Part shown: piece by piece, positions 36,212 through 44,105 of the stretch
Position numbering within the stretch: the stretch's first letter is position 1
Layout of the letters: every line of letters begins with the position of its first letter
Origin: Pirellulales bacterium
Lineage (GTDB): Bacteria > Planctomycetota > Planctomycetia > Pirellulales > PALSA-1355
Assembly (NCBI GenBank): GCA_963733035.1
Contig: CAVTBU010000009.1
Location: 256,001-320,000, forward strand
DNA length: 64,000 bases
Direction of reading: 5' to 3'
Program-made: the position numbers and the translations under genes
Notes under the pieces: model-generated
Databases searched by the model: none
The model's input: only the letters and a program-made list of their open reading frames with translations
What the model was told of the DNA's origin: nothing

Positions 36212-37952
36212 TTACTTGCGACGACCAGCTTCGACCATCGCCAGGAACTCGTTCAATGTTCGCGTGTTCGCTACGTCCTGTTTGGTTAGCCCCGCCCGAC
36301 GCGCTTGCAGGATTCCGTAGCGCAGCACGTCGAGTCCGTTCGTGTTGTGGGCATCACTGGAAATGACAATCGGCACTCCCTGGCTCTTGGCCGTCGCGCA
36401 GGCCACGTCATCCAGATCAAGCCGGCGCGGATTGGCGTTCAATTCCAGCATTTTGTGGTGTTCTCGGGCCACGCGGAATACGGCCTCCAGGTCGATTTCA
36501 TAGGCCTTGCGGCGGTTGATCAAGCGTCCCGTCGGATGTGCGATGGCCGAAACGTAGGGATTGGCCAACGCGTCAACAACGCGCCTGGTGATTTGGTCAC
36601 GCGATTGATTCTGCCCGTAGTGCACGCTGGCCACGACCCAATCCGCCTCAGACAGAACGTCGTCGTCGAGGTCGAGTTCGCCTGATTCGAGGATGTCGCA
36701 CTCAATGCCCTTGAGCACGCGAAAACCTCGCAATCGCTTGTTGATTTTGTCGATCTGCTTCCATTGCGCGCGAAGCCGCTTGGCGTCCATACCGCGTGCC
36801 ATCGTGACACGTTTCGAATGGTCAGTGATGGCGATGTACTTCAGGCCGCGTTCTTGAGCGGCCGCGATCATTTCCTCGAGCGACGCCTTGCCGTCGGTTT
36901 CGGTGGTGTGCATGTGCAAATCGGTGCGCAGGTCCGAGAGTTCGACAAGTTGGGGCAACTTGCCCTGGTCGGCCCATTCGAACTCACGGCGAGCCTCGCG
37001 CAGTTCTGGCGGAATCCACGGCAAATCGAGCGTGGCATAGACCTCCTGTTCGGTGCGGCCGGCGATCATGGTCTCCTTCTTGCCGTCGACACGGAATACG
37101 CCGTACTCGTTGATCTTCAGTCCACGGTCCTTGGCGCGCCCACGAACGACAATGTTGTGATCCTTTGAGCCGGTGAAATACTGAAGTGCCGCACCGAAGC
37201 TCTCGGCGGGTACGACGCGCAAATCGACCTGCAGACCGTCGGCCAGGCGAATGCTGATCTTCGTCGGTCCGCGACCGATAACCGTCGCGGCGTCTGGGAA
37301 CGCCGCAAACCGATCCATAACCAGTGCCGGCTGCGACGAGACCGCGAGCAGATCGAGGTCGCCAATGGTGTCTTTGCCCCGTCGGTAGCTGCCCGCAACT
37401 TCCAGTTGTTCGATAGCCGGGCAGTCACTCATCCAATTGCGAATCGCGGCAGCGAACTTATCGGCATCGGCCCAGGCGAGTCGCACGTCGATCGTCTCGG
37501 CCAGCCCGATCCCGGCCAGAATCGCCTCTTCGGTTTTTGCGCCGAAGCCCTTGAGTTTCCGGACTTGCTCAGCCTCGCATGCCTTCCGCAAGTCGTCGAG
37601 TGTCGTGATTTTCAGTTCTTTGTAGAGTAGCGCGGCCTTTTTGGGCCCCAGGCCCGGAATGCGCAACAACGTGAGCACCGACTGCGGCACTTGGGCCTTG
37701 AGTTCCTCAAGCATTGGCAGCGTTTGGGCCGCACAAAGGGTGACGATCTTTTCGGCCAGATCCTTGCCGACACCCTGAATGTCGGTCAGCTTCCGCTCGG
37801 AATCGGCAACGATCGATTCCATTTGCTCGGGATAATCGCGGACGGTCCGCGCGCCGTTGCGGTAGGCGCGGCACACGAAAAGGGTTGGCGCCTTGAAATT
37901 CAAGCAAGTCGGCGATCAGGTCAAAGACTTCGGCGATGCGGACGTTGTTCAT
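36212..37952 (-). CDS. polX: DNA polymerase X / PHP 3'-5' exonuclease; frameshift at ~37870
   Basis: MNNVRIAEVFDLIADLLEFQGANPFRV then RAYRNGA after removing one base; AGSYRRGKDTIGDLD, QVDLR, YFTGSK; PHP motifs DLHMHT, TDHS, AHPTGR, SSDAH. Confidence 0.95.
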
Positions 37953-38104: not shown

Positions 38105-39082
38105 TTAGTCGGCCACCGCCTCCCAACCCCCGTTGTCCACCGGCCTGACATCCGCCTTCGCGGGCAACACCAGCGACGCCTGACGTACCGGCCAGCCACT
38201 CCGCACTGAAATCGAAGTGGTTCGATCGCCGTCTTCTGGATCCAAGCCTCGGGGCTGCTCGTTCAACGACGAACTGGTCGGGCTTGAGGTGCCATTGTTG
38301 TAGGGGGGCAGCAGCACACGCGATTGCGGCTGCGTGCCGCTTCCCGTCGAACCGCTGCCGTTGGTCGAGCCGTTTCCTCCGTTGGGAGCAAACGTCGAAT
38401 TTGACGGGCTCGAAGACGGATACGAACTTCCATTGAGCGACGGATCCGGAGTCGGCGTCAAACTTTGTAGAGTCGAACCCGGGCTGCCCGAGGGACTCGA
38501 CGTGCTCGGTTGAACAATCGTGGTGCCGGTCGTCGAACTGTAGCCCGATAGCGACGGTGTTGGCGTTGAGCCGCAACAAGCCGGTGCCGGAGCGGCAACC
38601 GGTGCCGGGCTATAGCTTGAAAGCGTGGGAGCGGGAGTCGCACCGCAACAGGCAGGCGCGGCAACGGGAACTGCCGGAGCGTAGCTGACGACGGTGGGAA
38701 CTGTCGCACAACAAGGCCTGGCGACCGAGGTGACCACCGGCCGGTAGGTCGTGTACGGCACCAACTGCTGTTGCGACACATAAGTCGTTACGGGCCGCAT
38801 GACCGTCGTCGCACGACCGCACGCATCGCAAGCCGTCTGCGGCATGTACGACACCACGGGGCGGTTGACGGTCACCGCGCGATAGGCCGTTTGCGGCATG
38901 TAGTTGACCACTTGCTGCGGAGCGCAGACAGGCGCCACCGGAGCATAGCTGGCCACGTACGGGGTATAGAACGTCGTGGTCGGACGCCCGCACCCAAACA
39001 GTTTGCAGGCCTCCACTCGCGTGGCGCCTGTCGCCAGGCAACCGATCGCAACGAGTGCGGCAGTAAATTGACGGCCGATCAT
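38105..39082 (-). CDS. Secreted Cys/Pro/Thr/Tyr-rich low-complexity protein
   Basis: Signal peptide, repeated Y-x-P-V/Q-T segments, duplicated APACCG, S/P/G-rich tail; followed by a terminator. Confidence 0.75.
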   Translation of the reverse strand: MIGRQFTAALVAIGCLATGATRVEACKLFGCGRPTTTFYTPYVASYAPVAPVCAPQQVVNYMPQTAYRAVTVNRPVVSYMPQTACDACGRATTVMRPVTTYVSQQQLVPYTTYRPVVTSVARPCCATVPTVVSYAPAVPVAAPACCGATPAPTLSSYSPAPVAAPAPACCGSTPTPSLSGYSSTTGTTIVQPSTSSPSGSPGSTLQSLTPTPDPSLNGSSYPSSSPSNSTFAPNGGNGSTNGSGSTGSGTQPQSRVLLPPYNNGTSSPTSSSLNEQPRGLDPEDGDRTTSISVRSGWPVRQASLVLPAKADVRPVDNGGWEAVAD

Positions 39083-39491
39083 GTTGAGGTACTCCAGACG
39101 TGATTCTGCTTGCATCGTTCTTGTTACCCCGCCGAGCCCGGAAGTTCAATACGCAGGCGAGCTCGCGGCTTCATTTGGTTGTTCTTTACGATTGCGTTGA
39201 GTTGCGCTGTGCGGCGCAGTGTCGGGTCTTGGTAATCTTTACCGGATGGCCAAGCGTTCATTGCCATGAAAGCAACGCTCGCTTGCAGCCAAACACGACT
39301 ACGCTACGCAACCCAATCGCTTGCACTAATGTAGATTGAGATCCAGGTCGTGCCGGAAAAAACGGAGAATCTCCGGACGGACGCAGCCCCGTTTTGACAT
39401 CAAATACAGACATGGCCCGGTGGTCGGAAGAATCGTTGCTAGCGGCACAACAGACACTTGGGGAACAATTGAAACGATGCCTTGCTCGGTT

Positions 39492-40114
39492 CTATCGAAC
39501 GCGCCCACCTTGCCGATTTCGCCGTTCCCACTCGTCGTACAGGCGAAAAAGTGTTTCGCGCAGGTCGCCCCCAGCTGCCCGGCATTGTTGAGCGACCACT
39601 TCAGGTTCGAAGGAATCGCGCGTCTTGGAGAGAAGCATTTCGACGACTCGCTGCGCGGTTGGCAAGTCGGCGTTGGTTTCAAAAAGCCGCGGTAGTCCGG
39701 TGGGTCCGTGGGCCGTGACCAGCAGCCCCCACGCTTTGCGCCAGCAAGCGCATTGAACTCGCAAGCGGTTCCAACAACTCAACTTTTCGTACCCGTCGAT
39801 CACAATCAAATCGGCGCGGGCCTTGCTCGCCTCAACCTTCCAACCAAGTGGCATGGCTCGCTGCTCATCGCGGAGACGAGTGCGCCATGGAACTCGACCC
39901 GCGGCTGCCAGCGCCGGCTCCAAGGCCACGAGCAAAGTCGACTTGCCGGAACCATGTGGACCGACAATCTCACCTCGCCAGTTGTTTTGACGCAATCGGT
40001 CGATCACTGCCGGGGCGTTTTCGCCCGGCGGAAACAAATAGTCAATGGCGCCGGGCGCGTAAACCGTGTCGAAAAGGGATTCGAGCGCATCGCAGGAATC
40101 GGTATGCGATTCAT
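39492..40114 (-). CDS. Small P-loop (AAA+-like) ATPase; frameshift at ~40053
   Basis: ATG overlaps the upstream TGA. MRSNPFSTRFTR then PGAIDYLFPP after one added C. Walker A GPHGSGKST, Walker B LIVIDG, LLVTAH, GDLRE. Confidence 0.78.
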
Positions 40115-40512
40115 CGTCGGCTCACCTGCTCTGGCGGAGGGACCGAGCCGAGCTGAAACGGCACGTCCAGAGTTAGTTCACGTCCCTGCCAAAAGAAGAC
40201 GCGAGCCCGCACGCACCAGCAGATGCGGAGAATGATGCCGTTGTAGCTGAGCGGACTATTGGGAAGCACGGTGCTAAAGCGGCGCGGCTGATGCAGGTCG
40301 ACCGGCACGTCATCCGGCTCGATTCGCTCGAAGAAGTGGACTGACATGTCCTCGTCGCCCTTGCCCTCGGTGTGCCAAAGGACCGAAAGCTCAAGAGCGC
40401 GGACTTCCTCCGGGTTCGCACCATGTATGCGCATCTGTCCTGACAACAGTTCACCAGGACGGTACCTCCGCGCATGGTCGTCGAGCGCCAGTGTAAGCCG
40501 CGGCTGCATCAT
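40111..40512 (-). CDS. Hypothetical beta-sandwich protein (arrestin-N/SpoOM-like pattern)
   Basis: YRPGELLSG, LELSVLWHTEGKGDED, FSTVLPNSPLSYNG, ICWCVRARV; ATGA overlaps at both ends. Confidence 0.78.
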   Translation of the reverse strand: MMQPRLTLALDDHARRYRPGELLSGQMRIHGANPEEVRALELSVLWHTEGKGDEDMSVHFFERIEPDDVPVDLHQPRRFSTVLPNSPLSYNGIILRICWCVRARVFFWQGRELTLDVPFQLGSVPPPEQVSRR

Positions 40513-41831
40513 GAGCGCGAACCTCCAACCGTGCCCGGGTTGACGACGACCTGAAACTCGCGTTGAAAGTCAGGCTTGCCACGGACGTGGCCATTGACGA
40601 GCAGTTTCCAACTCACCTCGTTATGGTTCGCCAGGAACGAATGCATGGCTCCAGCCGGCACGGCAATCTCACATCGGCTTTCGAAAGGCAGACCCTGCGC
40701 GATTTCAAAGTCTTCCCGCAGAAAGAAACGCTGCTCAAACACGCGCCGCGTTTCGGTGCGGGTATCGGTGCCCTGCAAGAACGTCGTGTGTTCGTCGCAA
40801 GCCAACCAGACCTCCAGCGACTGCATGTCCAGCCGCCCCGCTTGCGAGAGAAAGATTTCGTAGCTTTCGCCGGGCACCAGGGGGTGGGCCGAGACTTCGA
40901 TTCGCGTGGGCCCGATGCCCGTGGCGGCAATGATCTGGCGGCTCATATAGACAGCCAGCCATACGCCGCCGATCACAAACGGCACGAGGGCCGCGGTGAG
41001 CCCCCAGTCCGGCTCGCCTTGAGCAAAGCCCTGGATCACCATCACGGCGAATAGCACAACAATCGCATTCCAACTGACGCAGGCGGCCACCGTGGCCATT
41101 AGCTTCCAGCCGGGCGTGGTCGAGGTCGGCAACCGATACGCCAAGGTGGTGCCCGGACTATTGGTCAGATTCGCTTCGGTCGGGACGGTGGGGAAATCTC
41201 GCTCGCCGATCGGCACTTCGAACAAGTCGAGATGCGCGGCGCGTTGCTCCAGCGCGCTACGGCGCTCTTCCGAGGCAGTCCAATGCACAAGCGCGTAAAT
41301 CATCCGCCCACCCCCGATGACGATGAATGACAGCGGAATCAGGAGCGAGACATATAACCAGGCGCTATAGCCGCGCACCAGCACCACGCGCCCCGCGTCG
41401 AGGGGGTCATACCAACAAGGGTATTGCGCGCCGACCTCGAAGCGGTCGAGAACCTGCCGCGCTTTGGCTGCGTCCGATGAATAGAGATTTGTGGCATCGT
41501 AAACGTTGTCTGCCTCGTAGATTCCGTCAGCCGCCTCGTAGCGGACTTTGAATTCCGGCCGGAACATTGCCGAATCAAGCTCGGTCCGAGCGGCACTAGC
41601 CGCCGGCGGGCTGCCAATGCGCTTTGCGAGGACCGTGCACACGGTTTCCTCAAATTGCCGATTCGCCCGCCATTCGGGCCAGACGAGGGCAGCCAGCATA
41701 TACGCCAGAGCCGCGCAGCCCACCACAAAGAAGATCCCAAAAAACAGGGCCTCACCCAGATTGCCTACGGTTTGCGAGCCGGTGCGCCGGTTGCCGCGTT
41801 TCTTCTCGTACAGCCTGAAGAACCGAGACAA
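40509..41831 (-). CDS. DUF3592-like membrane protein with C-terminal beta-sandwich domain
   Basis: TTG 41831 with GAGGG RBS; TM helix, OB-like segment ending YPCWYDPLDAGRVVL, three further TM helices, soluble C-terminal domain. Confidence 0.82.
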   Translation of the reverse strand: MSRFFRLYEKKRGNRRTGSQTVGNLGEALFFGIFFVVGCAALAYMLAALVWPEWRANRQFEETVCTVLAKRIGSPPAASAARTELDSAMFRPEFKVRYEAADGIYEADNVYDATNLYSSDAAKARQVLDRFEVGAQYPCWYDPLDAGRVVLVRGYSAWLYVSLLIPLSFIVIGGGRMIYALVHWTASEERRSALEQRAAHLDLFEVPIGERDFPTVPTEANLTNSPGTTLAYRLPTSTTPGWKLMATVAACVSWNAIVVLFAVMVIQGFAQGEPDWGLTAALVPFVIGGVWLAVYMSRQIIAATGIGPTRIEVSAHPLVPGESYEIFLSQAGRLDMQSLEVWLACDEHTTFLQGTDTRTETRRVFEQRFFLREDFEIAQGLPFESRCEIAVPAGAMHSFLANHNEVSWKLLVNGHVRGKPDFQREFQVVVNPGTVGGSRS

Positions 41832-41944
41832 AACGGAAACCCTCAATCGACGCCGCTTGGTGAAGGACAGCCCACCCACGCGCTGTCCAGGAGCGAACCG
41901 ATCGCGGCTCGCTCATACCGCCTGTCCCTGCGGGCGGACGACCC

Positions 41945-41952
41945 ATTATAAT
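41945..41952. promoter_or_regulatory. Symmetric bidirectional -10 element ATTATAAT
   Basis: Perfect TATAAT on both strands, between divergent genes starting at 41831(-) and 42006(+). Confidence 0.55.
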
Positions 41953-42005
41953 CCGTTGGCGCGGCACCCATGATTTTGACTTTGACCGACCCAAAGGACA
42001 ACCGG

Positions 42006-43307
42006 ATGCACAATTTTGTTGGTTCCCACGTCAACGGGCGACGACAGCGTGTGATTCGCCTGGCCGCGATCGTCGTGCTGAGCGGCGGCCTCGTGGCCAG
42101 CGCAACGGCGACCAGGGTTCAGGCAGGCGACTGGCCTCAAATATTGGGACCACACCGCGACGGTCGCGCCGACGGAGAGCAACTGCTCCAATGGCCCGCA
42201 TCGGGTCCGCGGCTGATCTGGCAGCGCGAAGTGGGACAAGGCTTTGCCGGCCTGGCCGTCGTGGGAGAGCGGGCTATTCTCTTTCATCGACTGGGTAACA
42301 ATCTCGTCGCCGAGTCTCTCGACACCGCAACGGGCAAGGCGACCTGGAAAACCAGTTTTGAAACCAACTATCGCGGTTCCATCTCACCCGACTCCGGTCC
42401 GCGCTGCGTGCCACTGGTGCACGAAGAGCGGATCTATCTCGTGGGTCCTAGTGGCGAGTTGGCCTGTGTGCGGCTTGGAACAGGTGAAAAAGTTTGGGAA
42501 AGAAACGTGCATCGGGATTTCAACGCGCCGGACGGCTATTTTGGCGCCGGCAGCAGTCCGATTGTCGAAGGCGACAAGCTATTGCTGAACGTGGGCGGCC
42601 GCGGCGGGGCGGGGATTGTCGCGTTTTCACTGACCGACGGGAAAACGATTTGGAAATCGACCGATGAAGCCGCCAGCTATTCGTCGCCAGTGGCAGTAGC
42701 GCTCGATGGTCAACGGCTTGTGATCTTTGTTACCCGGCTGAACGTGGTCGCCGTCGATCCCCAGAATGGCGCTGTGAGGTTTCAGTTTCCCTTTGGTCAA
42801 CGAGGGCCTACCGTCAATGCCGCCAATCCAATTGCGATCGGTAATCACTTGTTTGTTTCCGCTAGCTACGGCGTTGGCGCGGTGTGGGCCAAGATTGGTC
42901 CCAACAGCGCGAGCACTGTCTGGGAAAGCAACGACGTTATGTCGAGCCAATACACTACGTGCATCGAGAAAGACGGTGTGCTGTACGGCATCGACGGTCG
43001 TCAGGACGTGGGCGTGGCGCGGCTACGCGCTTTCGATCCCCAGACCGGCAATGTCGATTGGACGGAGGAAGGCTTTGGCACCGGAAACCTGATTTTGTCC
43101 GGCGACAAGCTGCTCATTATGAAAACCGATGGGACGCTTGTCTTGGTTCAGCCGTCGCCAAAAACCTACCAACCGCTGGCCGATGCTCAATTGTTTGACA
43201 CCACCGTGCAAGCCCTGCCGGCGCTGTCGCGTGGTCGACTATTTGTTCGCGATACCAAGACGCTCAAATGCGTCGCCGTTGGAAAACCGGCGACCAGCCG
43301 CCCCTAG
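42006..43307 (+). CDS. PQQ-binding-like / BamB-like beta-propeller protein, secreted
   Basis: DWPQILGPHRDG, repeated TG-x-x-x-W blades, SSP and YSSP, LSRGRLFVRD; AAAGGA RBS. Confidence 0.9.
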   Translation: MHNFVGSHVNGRRQRVIRLAAIVVLSGGLVASATATRVQAGDWPQILGPHRDGRADGEQLLQWPASGPRLIWQREVGQGFAGLAVVGERAILFHRLGNNLVAESLDTATGKATWKTSFETNYRGSISPDSGPRCVPLVHEERIYLVGPSGELACVRLGTGEKVWERNVHRDFNAPDGYFGAGSSPIVEGDKLLLNVGGRGGAGIVAFSLTDGKTIWKSTDEAASYSSPVAVALDGQRLVIFVTRLNVVAVDPQNGAVRFQFPFGQRGPTVNAANPIAIGNHLFVSASYGVGAVWAKIGPNSASTVWESNDVMSSQYTTCIEKDGVLYGIDGRQDVGVARLRAFDPQTGNVDWTEEGFGTGNLILSGDKLLIMKTDGTLVLVQPSPKTYQPLADAQLFDTTVQALPALSRGRLFVRDTKTLKCVAVGKPATSRP

Positions 43308-43379: not shown

Positions 43380-43652
43380 TTAGCAGCCCACGGGCTCGCG
43401 TTTGGCACGGCGATAGAAGCCGACGCCTTCCAGGGCCTTGTAGACTTCCTCAAGTGTTTTTTCGCCGAAGTTTGAGATGCTAAGCAGGTCATCTCGCGTG
43501 CAATGCAGCAAATCGTTGACCGTGAAGATACCCCGTTCTTCCAGGCAATTTGTCGTGCGAACGGTCAGGCCAATTTCGGCGGTGCTCATTTCCAAACGAG
43601 CGGTAAGATCTTCTGCCTGAGTGTCGAGCGTGGGCAACTTAACGCGGGTCAT
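43380..43652 (-). CDS. Stand-alone RNA polymerase alpha subunit C-terminal domain protein
   Basis: EIGLTVRTTNCLEERGIFTVNDLL...DLLSISNFGEKTLEEV; GAGGGAGG RBS; no alpha-NTD. Confidence 0.9.
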   Translation of the reverse strand: MTRVKLPTLDTQAEDLTARLEMSTAEIGLTVRTTNCLEERGIFTVNDLLHCTRDDLLSISNFGEKTLEEVYKALEGVGFYRRAKREPVGC

Positions 43653-44105
43653 CGGGCTCCCTCCCTCAATGAGAAAATAGTTGTTCAACGAGATGGCAGG
43701 CGCGCGTGGTTCTCCTGCCTTGGTGGGCCACTCCTGTTGGCCTCTTCGTTGGCCGGTAATATAGCAACTTCGCTGGAAAATGGTACCGGTTAGAGAAGAT
43801 TTTCAGGCGGCAGGCGGCCCGGCATGCTAGCATTCGCTCGGTTCATACTGAAGGGTACGCCGCGTTCGGCGACGTTTGTCGGTACGTGACACGCGGCTTC
43901 TGATTGGCGGCTTTGATGTGGCATGAACGTTGTGCAAACAAGACTTGAACGATTGTCGTTTTGCCTCGGGCGCCGCAGCCCCGTTCGATTCGCACACGCA
44001 CGCTGGCGGGCTGCCGCCGAAACCGCACATGCGTATACTATAAACGTGGCAGATCGATTGAAGTTTAGCACCTCGCATTTCGGCAACTGACAGGGATCTC
44101 GGGCT

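Follow-up and report, generated by a model that had tools for sequence, protein, structure and literature searches.

Arrestin-fold proteins are central adaptors of membrane traffic and signalling in eukaryotes. To our knowledge the Spo0M proteins, which are soluble and poorly understood, are the sole prokaryotic relatives of arrestins to have been described. Spo0M of Bacillus subtilis (PDB 5cl2; PF07070) represents the prokaryotic branch of the arrestin clan, and the phyla listed as carrying Spo0M in the available portion of that source do not include Planctomycetota (PMC2515105). Here we describe a module of three genes, termed A, B and C, on the minus strand at positions 39492–41831 of a 64 000-nucleotide stretch of a Pirellulales genome (assembly GCA_963733035.1, contig CAVTBU010000009.1, positions 256,001 to 320,000 of the forward strand; this whole stretch is referred to as the window). 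The module is predicted to tie two arrestin-like lobes, one of them in a membrane protein, to a small nucleoside triphosphatase (NTPase).

Spo0M has the same fold as protein B, but it occurs as one soluble protein that has neither a membrane anchor nor a partner lobe nor an NTPase, unlike A-B-C, and the Spo0M Pfam family gave no match in 64 B homologues (expectation value, E, up to 0.1) or in the window proteins. The best structural matches were eukaryotic alpha-arrestins (the ARRDC3 N-lobe, 4r7x, and TXNIP/VDUP-1) and VPS26, with an identity of 6–19%. Arrestins and Vps26 carry two lobes in one polypeptide, whereas here the lobes are split over two, one of which is a four-helix membrane protein. 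Furthermore, for the A-B-C module neither PPxY or clathrin motifs nor retromer partners nor a receptor are known. The likeness to the eukaryotic arrestin and Vps26 lobes may reflect either ancestry or convergence of fold. Protein A is also a member, above the cut-off, of the DUF3592 family (PF12158), but adds an arrestin-like domain and operon partners to it. A DUF3592 protein has been described as a transmembrane protein with a role termed unclear (PMC12482557) and another as a predicted cofactor of a mycobacterial mannosyltransferase (bioRxiv 10.64898/2026.07.15.738315); the accessible portions of these two sources mention neither an arrestin-like domain nor an A-B-C operon. Literature searches on DUF3592 and on arrestin with Spo0M, Planctomycetes or prokaryotic Vps26 returned no description of the module. 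The A-B-C module is real, conserved and undescribed in the literature found.

The three genes lie at 40509–41831 (A), 40111–40512 (B) and 39492–40114 (C) and are translationally coupled. The TGA of A overlaps the ATG of B in an ATGA at 40512–40509, and the TGA of B overlaps the ATG of C in an ATGA at 40114–40111. An earlier note on this DNA, made from the letters without database searches, had reported the three minus-strand genes with these two overlaps and a middle protein of 133 amino acids; the coordinates were confirmed, as was the length by the open reading frame (ORF) of B. The start of A is a TTG at 41831, with GAGG ∼10 nucleotides 5′ of it. The ORF of A stays open as far as a GTG at 41879, but the A homologues begin at the TTG position and the start was therefore placed at 41831. 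Gene A encodes an inner-membrane protein of 440 amino acids, B a predicted soluble, single-lobe arrestin-like protein and C a small P-loop NTPase, which is ∼205 amino acids long in relatives and carries a one-base frameshift here.

When C was read from the ATG at 40114, the conserved N-terminal motif was followed by a stop and the rest of C was found in another frame. DNA alignment with five relatives placed the missing base within ACGCG-CCCGG at 40053–40057, at the point where a frameshift (40053) had already been proposed from the letters. In nine relatives in which C reads through, the motif and the ATPase body share one frame. A programmed frameshift was considered and rejected, as C of the relatives is in frame. 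A second frame change was seen ∼2 kb from that in C, at the 5′ end (∼37872–37903, to 37958) of a PolX-like gene on the minus strand (36212–37903), where in a 20-kb comparison the N-terminal 30–50 residues of two same-genus homologues map to a frame other than that of the remainder of the gene. The alternative that C has really decayed in this strain, either as a pseudogene or as a protein made from an internal TTG at 40037 without the docking motif, would agree with the base missing relative to five relatives and with the gene call of the genome itself, a fragment of 120 amino acids without Walker A (P0242). Against this, both frames are open and conserved save for the one base, and the body of C in the window shares 84% identity with P0241, its nearest homologue, across 88% of the query. 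In addition, the second frame change in PolX and the completeness of the genome (92%, in 10 contigs, compared with 97–100% for its genus) fit sporadic indel errors. Because C is otherwise intact, a second frame change lies nearby and the genome is less complete, an assembly indel appears a likelier cause than a genuine mutation to a pseudogene, and the decay reading is unlikely although it deserves to be kept in mind.

The C homologues are 190–238 amino acids long and conserve the motifs NPFSTRFxRPG, GPHGSGKSTLL, VVDGYEQL and GLLVTAH and a C-terminal GGNLRETLFxLYD helix. On the minus strand of the window, the N-terminal motif NPFSTRFTRP(G) lies at 40050–40081 and spans the frameshift site; N12, F14 and P21 are invariant in the family, and conservation is 90% or more for P13, T16, R17, R20 and G22. 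Walker A, GPHGSGKST, is found at 39936–39962 (G52, H54, G55, G57 and K58 invariant), a Walker B-like LIVIDGYEKL at 39780–39809 (D107, G108, E110, Q111 and L112 invariant) and the C-terminal helix GGDLRETLFRLYD at 39534–39572 (R186, E187, L189, L192 and D194 invariant). The Walker A, Walker B and sensor-like motifs that the earlier note had picked out in the third gene were thus located, and are conserved across the family. The Walker B has the form hhhhDGYE(Q/K)L, with D107 and E110 invariant, and does not contain the canonical DE pair of the ATPases associated with diverse cellular activities (AAA+; hhhhDE). The DGYEQ element presumably resembles the Walker B of NACHT, and we take the GGNLRE helix to be sensor-2-like from its likeness to AAA+ sensor 2.

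The same note had called this ATPase AAA+-like, but the matches found do not place it in AAA+. Pfam searches of 53 C homologues (E up to 0.01) gave matches to AAA_16 (43), AAA_29 (41), ABC_tran (35), nSTAND5 and NACHT (31 each, best E for the two 3.5e-8) and AAA_22 (24), and every Pfam match of the window protein and of the homologues was below its cut-off. NCBIfam gave P-loop-level matches only (Hda, E 0.0024, far under the cut-off), and a feature search of the ESM Atlas returned clusters of the planctomycete family itself and clusters with minority AAA_22, NACHT or AAA labels. A profile search against PDB sequences, in which RecA concatemers, a designed P-loop protein and ABC-F occupied the top rows, was dropped as a guide to class, as the alignment covers the P-loop alone and says nothing on class. 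The family alignment shows no conserved arginine past the sensor-1 strand, and C has no sensor or repeat domain and ends ∼60 residues past the core. Protein C is a P-loop NTPase, probably of the type of AAA+ or of signal transduction ATPases with numerous domains (STAND). It resembles these in Walker A, in the DGxE-type Walker B, in a polar residue that follows the next strand and in the GGNLRE helix; it differs in falling below all cut-offs and in its lack of sensor domains, repeat domains and an identified arginine finger. The C family also has an N-terminal NPFSTRFxRPG of its own, which sets it apart from minimal STAND/AAA+ NTPases.

The description of A as a DUF3592-like protein with four transmembrane (TM) segments, also made from the letters, was borne out. 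Pfam DUF3592 matched A with 33 bits against a cut-off of 25.3, and matched 40/40 A homologues. The model of A (predicted local distance difference test, pLDDT, 73) contains four long helices at residues 20–59, 157–184, 238–270 and 276–305 and has helices flanking the DUF3592 domain, which is encoded at 41367–41681 on the minus strand (residues ∼51–155, between TM1 and TM2). The modelled layout is a basic N-terminal tail, TM1, a beta domain, TM2, a loop, a TM3–TM4 hairpin and a C-terminal sandwich. From the basic N-terminus and the distribution of charge over the loops, the positive-inside rule would place loop 181–237 and the C-terminal domain in the cytoplasm and the DUF3592 domain probably outside the cell, in the periplasm. 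NCBIfam gave no match for A or B.

Two side observations were made on the membrane part of A. The DUF3592 domain of A shows a weak but recurrent likeness to the beta subunit of eukaryotic BK channels, in which an outer beta domain is bracketed by two transmembrane helices; CaKB was matched in 16/40 homologues (best E 8.1e-5), and Foldseek gave E 3.2e-5 against 6v22_E. In three loci from distant lineages, L036 (1746–3995), L038 (3961–5661) and L051 (2425–4197), the TM1 and DUF3592 part of the A profile matches the A homologue twice before the arrestin-like domain.

The C-terminal sandwich of A is encoded at 40527–40916 on the minus strand (residues ∼306–435) and was modelled with a pLDDT of roughly 80–90. 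Its structural comparison gave 13.9, 4.4 and 135 against the ARRDC3 N-lobe 4r7x_A (model residues 305–440), 13.7, 2.3 and 131 against VPS26B 3lh9_A (model residues 228–435) and 12.2, 2.4 and 124 against Spo0M 5cl2_B (model residues 304–435). Foldseek agreed on matches to the arrestin clan for residues 305–440. A strand in the cytoplasmic loop, encoded at 41127–41150 on the minus strand (residues ∼228–235, in ...SPGTTLAYRLP), contains the invariant columns S225, P226, G227, L230, R233, L234 and P235 and is modelled as a strand at 230–233. Since some alignments to the VPS26 and arrestin C-lobes begin at residue 224–228 and run to 435, this strand may tentatively be regarded as an extra edge strand of the C-terminal sandwich, which would make the TM3–TM4 hairpin an insertion; the pLDDT is low here.

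Protein B was modelled with a pLDDT of 94.1 and a predicted template modelling score of 0.85, and lobes of the arrestin clan came out as its best structural matches by three different routes. All the top Foldseek matches listed for B belong to the arrestin clan (the ARRDC3 N-lobe with E 3.8e-8, beta-arrestin, Spo0M, TXNIP and VPS26), and in a search of 48,161 chains, made independently of Foldseek, the top four were ARRDC3, Spo0M, VPS26 and ARRD-6. Both models, that of A and that of B, show the fold of the clan, an elongated two-sheet sandwich lobe with arrestin topology, which is what the earlier note had expected Foldseek to return for the two beta domains. That note had also read a common strand pattern in them. 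The two sandwiches are alike in the models at the level of fold and match the same PDB chains, but a comparison of their sequence profiles detected no similarity, with an hhalign probability of 0.2%. The most conserved loop of both is the hairpin tip between the third and fourth strands. In A this is QGTDTRTE (residues 353–360; 40752–40775, minus strand), with G354, T355 and R358 invariant and Q353, D356, T357 and T359 at least 90% conserved, and in B it is TEGKGDED (residues 48–55; 40348–40371, minus strand), with G50 and G52 invariant and T48, E54 and D55 at least 90% conserved. Both tips are predicted contacts of C. The B family comprises 1202 proteins in 90% clusters, with 972 cluster representatives at 50%.

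It may be argued that the beta domains of A and B are generic immunoglobulin (Ig)-like sandwiches with no arrestin kinship, and that the locus encodes a membrane sensor of an ordinary kind together with two accessory proteins. Ig-like folds do score close behind the arrestin-clan lobes, by a small margin in the search of 48,161 chains with B (SoxZ 11.5, PECAM-1 10.8), and A and B have no profile similarity to one another. However, SoxZ and PECAM-1 align over 92–95 residues, compared with 117–130 for the arrestin clan, which takes the top four positions in that search and all the top Foldseek matches listed for B. By sequence, 24/64 B homologues matched Arrestin_C (best E 2.6e-6), 16/64 Arrestin_N and 1/64 Vps26, all below the cut-off in the searches with E up to 0.1; the B protein of the window itself gave no Pfam match at E up to 1, and arrestin models matched 0/40 homologues of the A family. 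In the fused proteins described below, the second domain is also a weak match to the B profile (E 0.006 and 0.00088). Generic Ig-like sandwiches therefore appear a rather improbable explanation, and the arrestin-type structural reading of A-B-C is well supported by prediction.

One planctomycete order carries the module almost throughout, and it is met again in other parts of the phylum. The order A-B-C was found in 11/11 family loci, and 40 further loci comprised 22 with A-B-C, six with A-B, four with B-C, one with B alone and seven with a fused protein that runs from a B-like lobe through two transmembrane helices to an A′-like lobe; conservation of the neighbourhood, one of the checks first proposed for this locus, thus came out in favour of the three genes as a group. 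Among the 22 A-B-C loci two have broken frames (L019 and L025) and one (L042) is truncated where its contig ends; among the four B-C loci A lies on another contig in one, and in another the contig ends 220 nucleotides upstream of B. In L019 (G015:C7) A is spread over three frames and B over two, with C intact, which could represent assembly frameshifts or a decaying copy. B was detected in 39/41 related genomes including that of the window, mostly with one match per genome, and the two genomes with no B match (G005, 95% complete, and G020, 74% complete) gave no A match either. When the phylum was sampled evenly with 301 genomes, 48 gave a match to B (E up to 0.001) and 29 a match to C (E up to 1e-5), two of the latter being P-loop-only matches. 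B is also carried by 25/27 genomes with a strong C match, and C lies directly downstream of B in 19/25; in the other 6/25, all from one family, B and C are far apart or on other contigs. These counts describe a pattern and constitute no test, as related genomes are not independent. C was absent from the two examined genomes carrying the fused form. The absence or lack of linkage of C in some lineages implies that the A/B pair does not require the NTPase. The genes that flank the module in distant loci are mutually unrelated, so the conserved unit is A-B, with C in many lineages; a larger conserved unit around A-B-C was rejected for the same reason.

In the window A and B have one lobe each, and the two lobes share a chain only in fusions from other lineages. 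Two database proteins have A followed by B in a single frame, P0456 (721 amino acids; A-like part 252–528, B 593–710) and P0482 (506 amino acids; A-like part 69–346, B 378–485), and so do two genome loci (L035 and L037). Proteins of ∼370 amino acids from other classes have the second architecture, with two transmembrane helices between a B-like and an A′-like lobe (L028, L032 and L044–L048), and with two helices between them both lobes lie on the same side of the membrane. These natural fusions argue that the lobes of A and B work together.

Residues 180–440 of A, B and P0241 (the C homologue that is 84% identical) were modelled as a complex, each with an alignment. With C as partner the scores were 0.61, 0.60 and 0.61, compared with 0.00 for the best of three controls, so that the prediction which had been suggested for the interface of the ATPase with the other two proteins (0.61 against 0.00) gave a positive result. 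The mark for this score is reached by 116/157 solved complexes and 2/215 mismatched pairs, counts that are roughly valid here, as the complex was run with its own alignments and three chains, unlike the calibration. At least 77% of contacts are shared between the runs, with a partner pLDDT of at least 76. We know of no solved complex of this kind, and it therefore seems unlikely that the score was passed through a memorised structure.

The predicted contacts of C are residues 11–12, 15–17 and 20–21, within the NPFSTR..RP motif, and 186, 190, 193, 197 and 201, on the lid helix; those of B are 49–54, 93–94 and 128–129, and those of A are 351, 353–354, 358 and 360. Eight of the 12 interface residues of C fall in the set conserved at 90% or more (52/207 columns), as do 3/5 in A and 3/10 in B. 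In the model the predicted contacts are the most conserved surface motifs of the families. The complex model supports binding of C to A and B without showing it, and a contact between A and B is implied only by the model, because C touches both.

These data appear to suggest that A, B and C together make up one inner-membrane complex with a nucleotide switch, conserved in Planctomycetota, a reading to which we assign a probability of roughly 0.55; any specific cellular role is much less certain. A would span the membrane four times, with the DUF3592 domain outside and the arrestin-type sandwich in the cytoplasm, and B would be a free second sandwich, such that A and B together form an arrestin-like platform, split into two lobes, on the cytoplasmic side of the membrane. 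C may dock through the NPFSTRFxRPG peptide and the lid helix on the tips QGTDTRTE of A and TEGKGDED of B. The outer DUF3592 domain of A would supply the input, and the binding partners of the platform would be set by the nucleotide state of C, which might alternatively couple the platform to the state of the outer domain of A. The most likely working principle of the module would be that of a nucleotide-gated switch or adaptor. Beyond the folds, the synteny and the predicted interface this reading is one that we infer, the hydrolysis of nucleoside triphosphate and the switching by C included. The same holds for the remodelling by the ATPase, the role of cargo adaptor and the connection with planctomycete membrane dynamics that the earlier note had brought up, all of which would be conjecture.

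Several points weigh against a single complex of this kind. C is frameshifted in this assembly and the third chain of the model was P0241 rather than the broken C of the window. The calibration fits the three-chain run only roughly, and the score covers C as partner. The matches of C, all sub-threshold, are spread over several P-loop families. None of the Pfam arrestin models scores above its cut-off for the proteins of the window, and no profile similarity was found between the sandwich of A and B. Lastly, C is absent or unlinked in some lineages.

Two arrestin-like lobes are connected in this module with the membrane and with a nucleotide-binding protein, by motifs that are open to mutation one by one, and as such it is a direct experimental handle on arrestin-type domains in bacteria and the first structural context for a DUF3592 protein. 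A wider interpretation, that the module is genuinely kin to the eukaryotic arrestin and Vps26 trafficking adaptors, as a prokaryotic member that is membrane-anchored and two-lobed and engages membrane proteins under the gate of a dedicated NTPase, is at this stage a long shot. If true, it would point to a role in the sorting or turnover of membrane proteins or in membrane shaping in planctomycetes, and to an arrestin clan with a bacterial origin in a membrane-adaptor role.

Within the order, synteny extends to genes encoding PolX, a Pro/Ser-rich protein, a BamB-like propeller, a protein like the C-terminal domain of RNA polymerase alpha (alpha-CTD) and UvrD. The free alpha-CTD-like gene (43380–43688, minus strand) encodes 102 amino acids that consist solely of RNA_pol_A_CTD (Pfam E 1.1e-18), and the BamB-like PQQ beta-propeller gene (41970–43307, plus strand; PQQ_2, E 4e-32) is divergent to A. 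A four-gene unit that includes the alpha-CTD gene and links a membrane signal to transcription could be envisaged, as the alpha-CTD gene is found upstream of A in the window and in 6/40 other loci, and directly adjacent to it in three (L014, L017 and L021). In the window and in L018, L020 and L022, however, the BamB-like gene intervenes on the opposite strand (it does not in L014, L017 or L021), therefore the alpha-CTD gene cannot share the A-B-C transcript there, and it was rejected as an operon member in the window. Moreover, among the 40 loci no alpha-CTD gene was found near A in those from outside the order, which makes the four-gene unit very unlikely.

A role of the module as an anti-phage or stress-related abortive system, in which a STAND-like NTPase senses a trigger and activates A as a membrane-damaging effector, would fit the sub-threshold matches of C to NACHT and nSTAND5 (31/53 each) and the pairing of an NTPase with a transmembrane effector, which is common in defence systems, but it is highly improbable given that PADLOC gave no match for A or B and only a P-loop match of C to mad8 (E 0.0091), that B is present in 39/41 related genomes, mostly as one match per genome, that the order-level synteny is with housekeeping genes (PolX and UvrD), unlike a variable island, and that C has no sensor domain and ends after a lid of ∼60 amino acids.

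A promoter scan of 39000–42200 found no sigma-70-like promoter. A terminator-like hairpin followed by a T-run lies at 39363–39375 on the minus strand, ∼115 nucleotides past the stop of C. Five terminator-like sites were seen in 39000–42200 and 3.6 were expected from shuffles, which is no excess, so that for this hairpin the position alone is suggestive. Further downstream, a gene at 38105–39115 on the minus strand encodes a Pro/Ser/Thr/Cys-rich protein of 336 amino acids with a hydrophobic N-terminus and no Pfam match. ORFs resembling it, in a count that low complexity may inflate, were also found downstream of C in several order-level loci.

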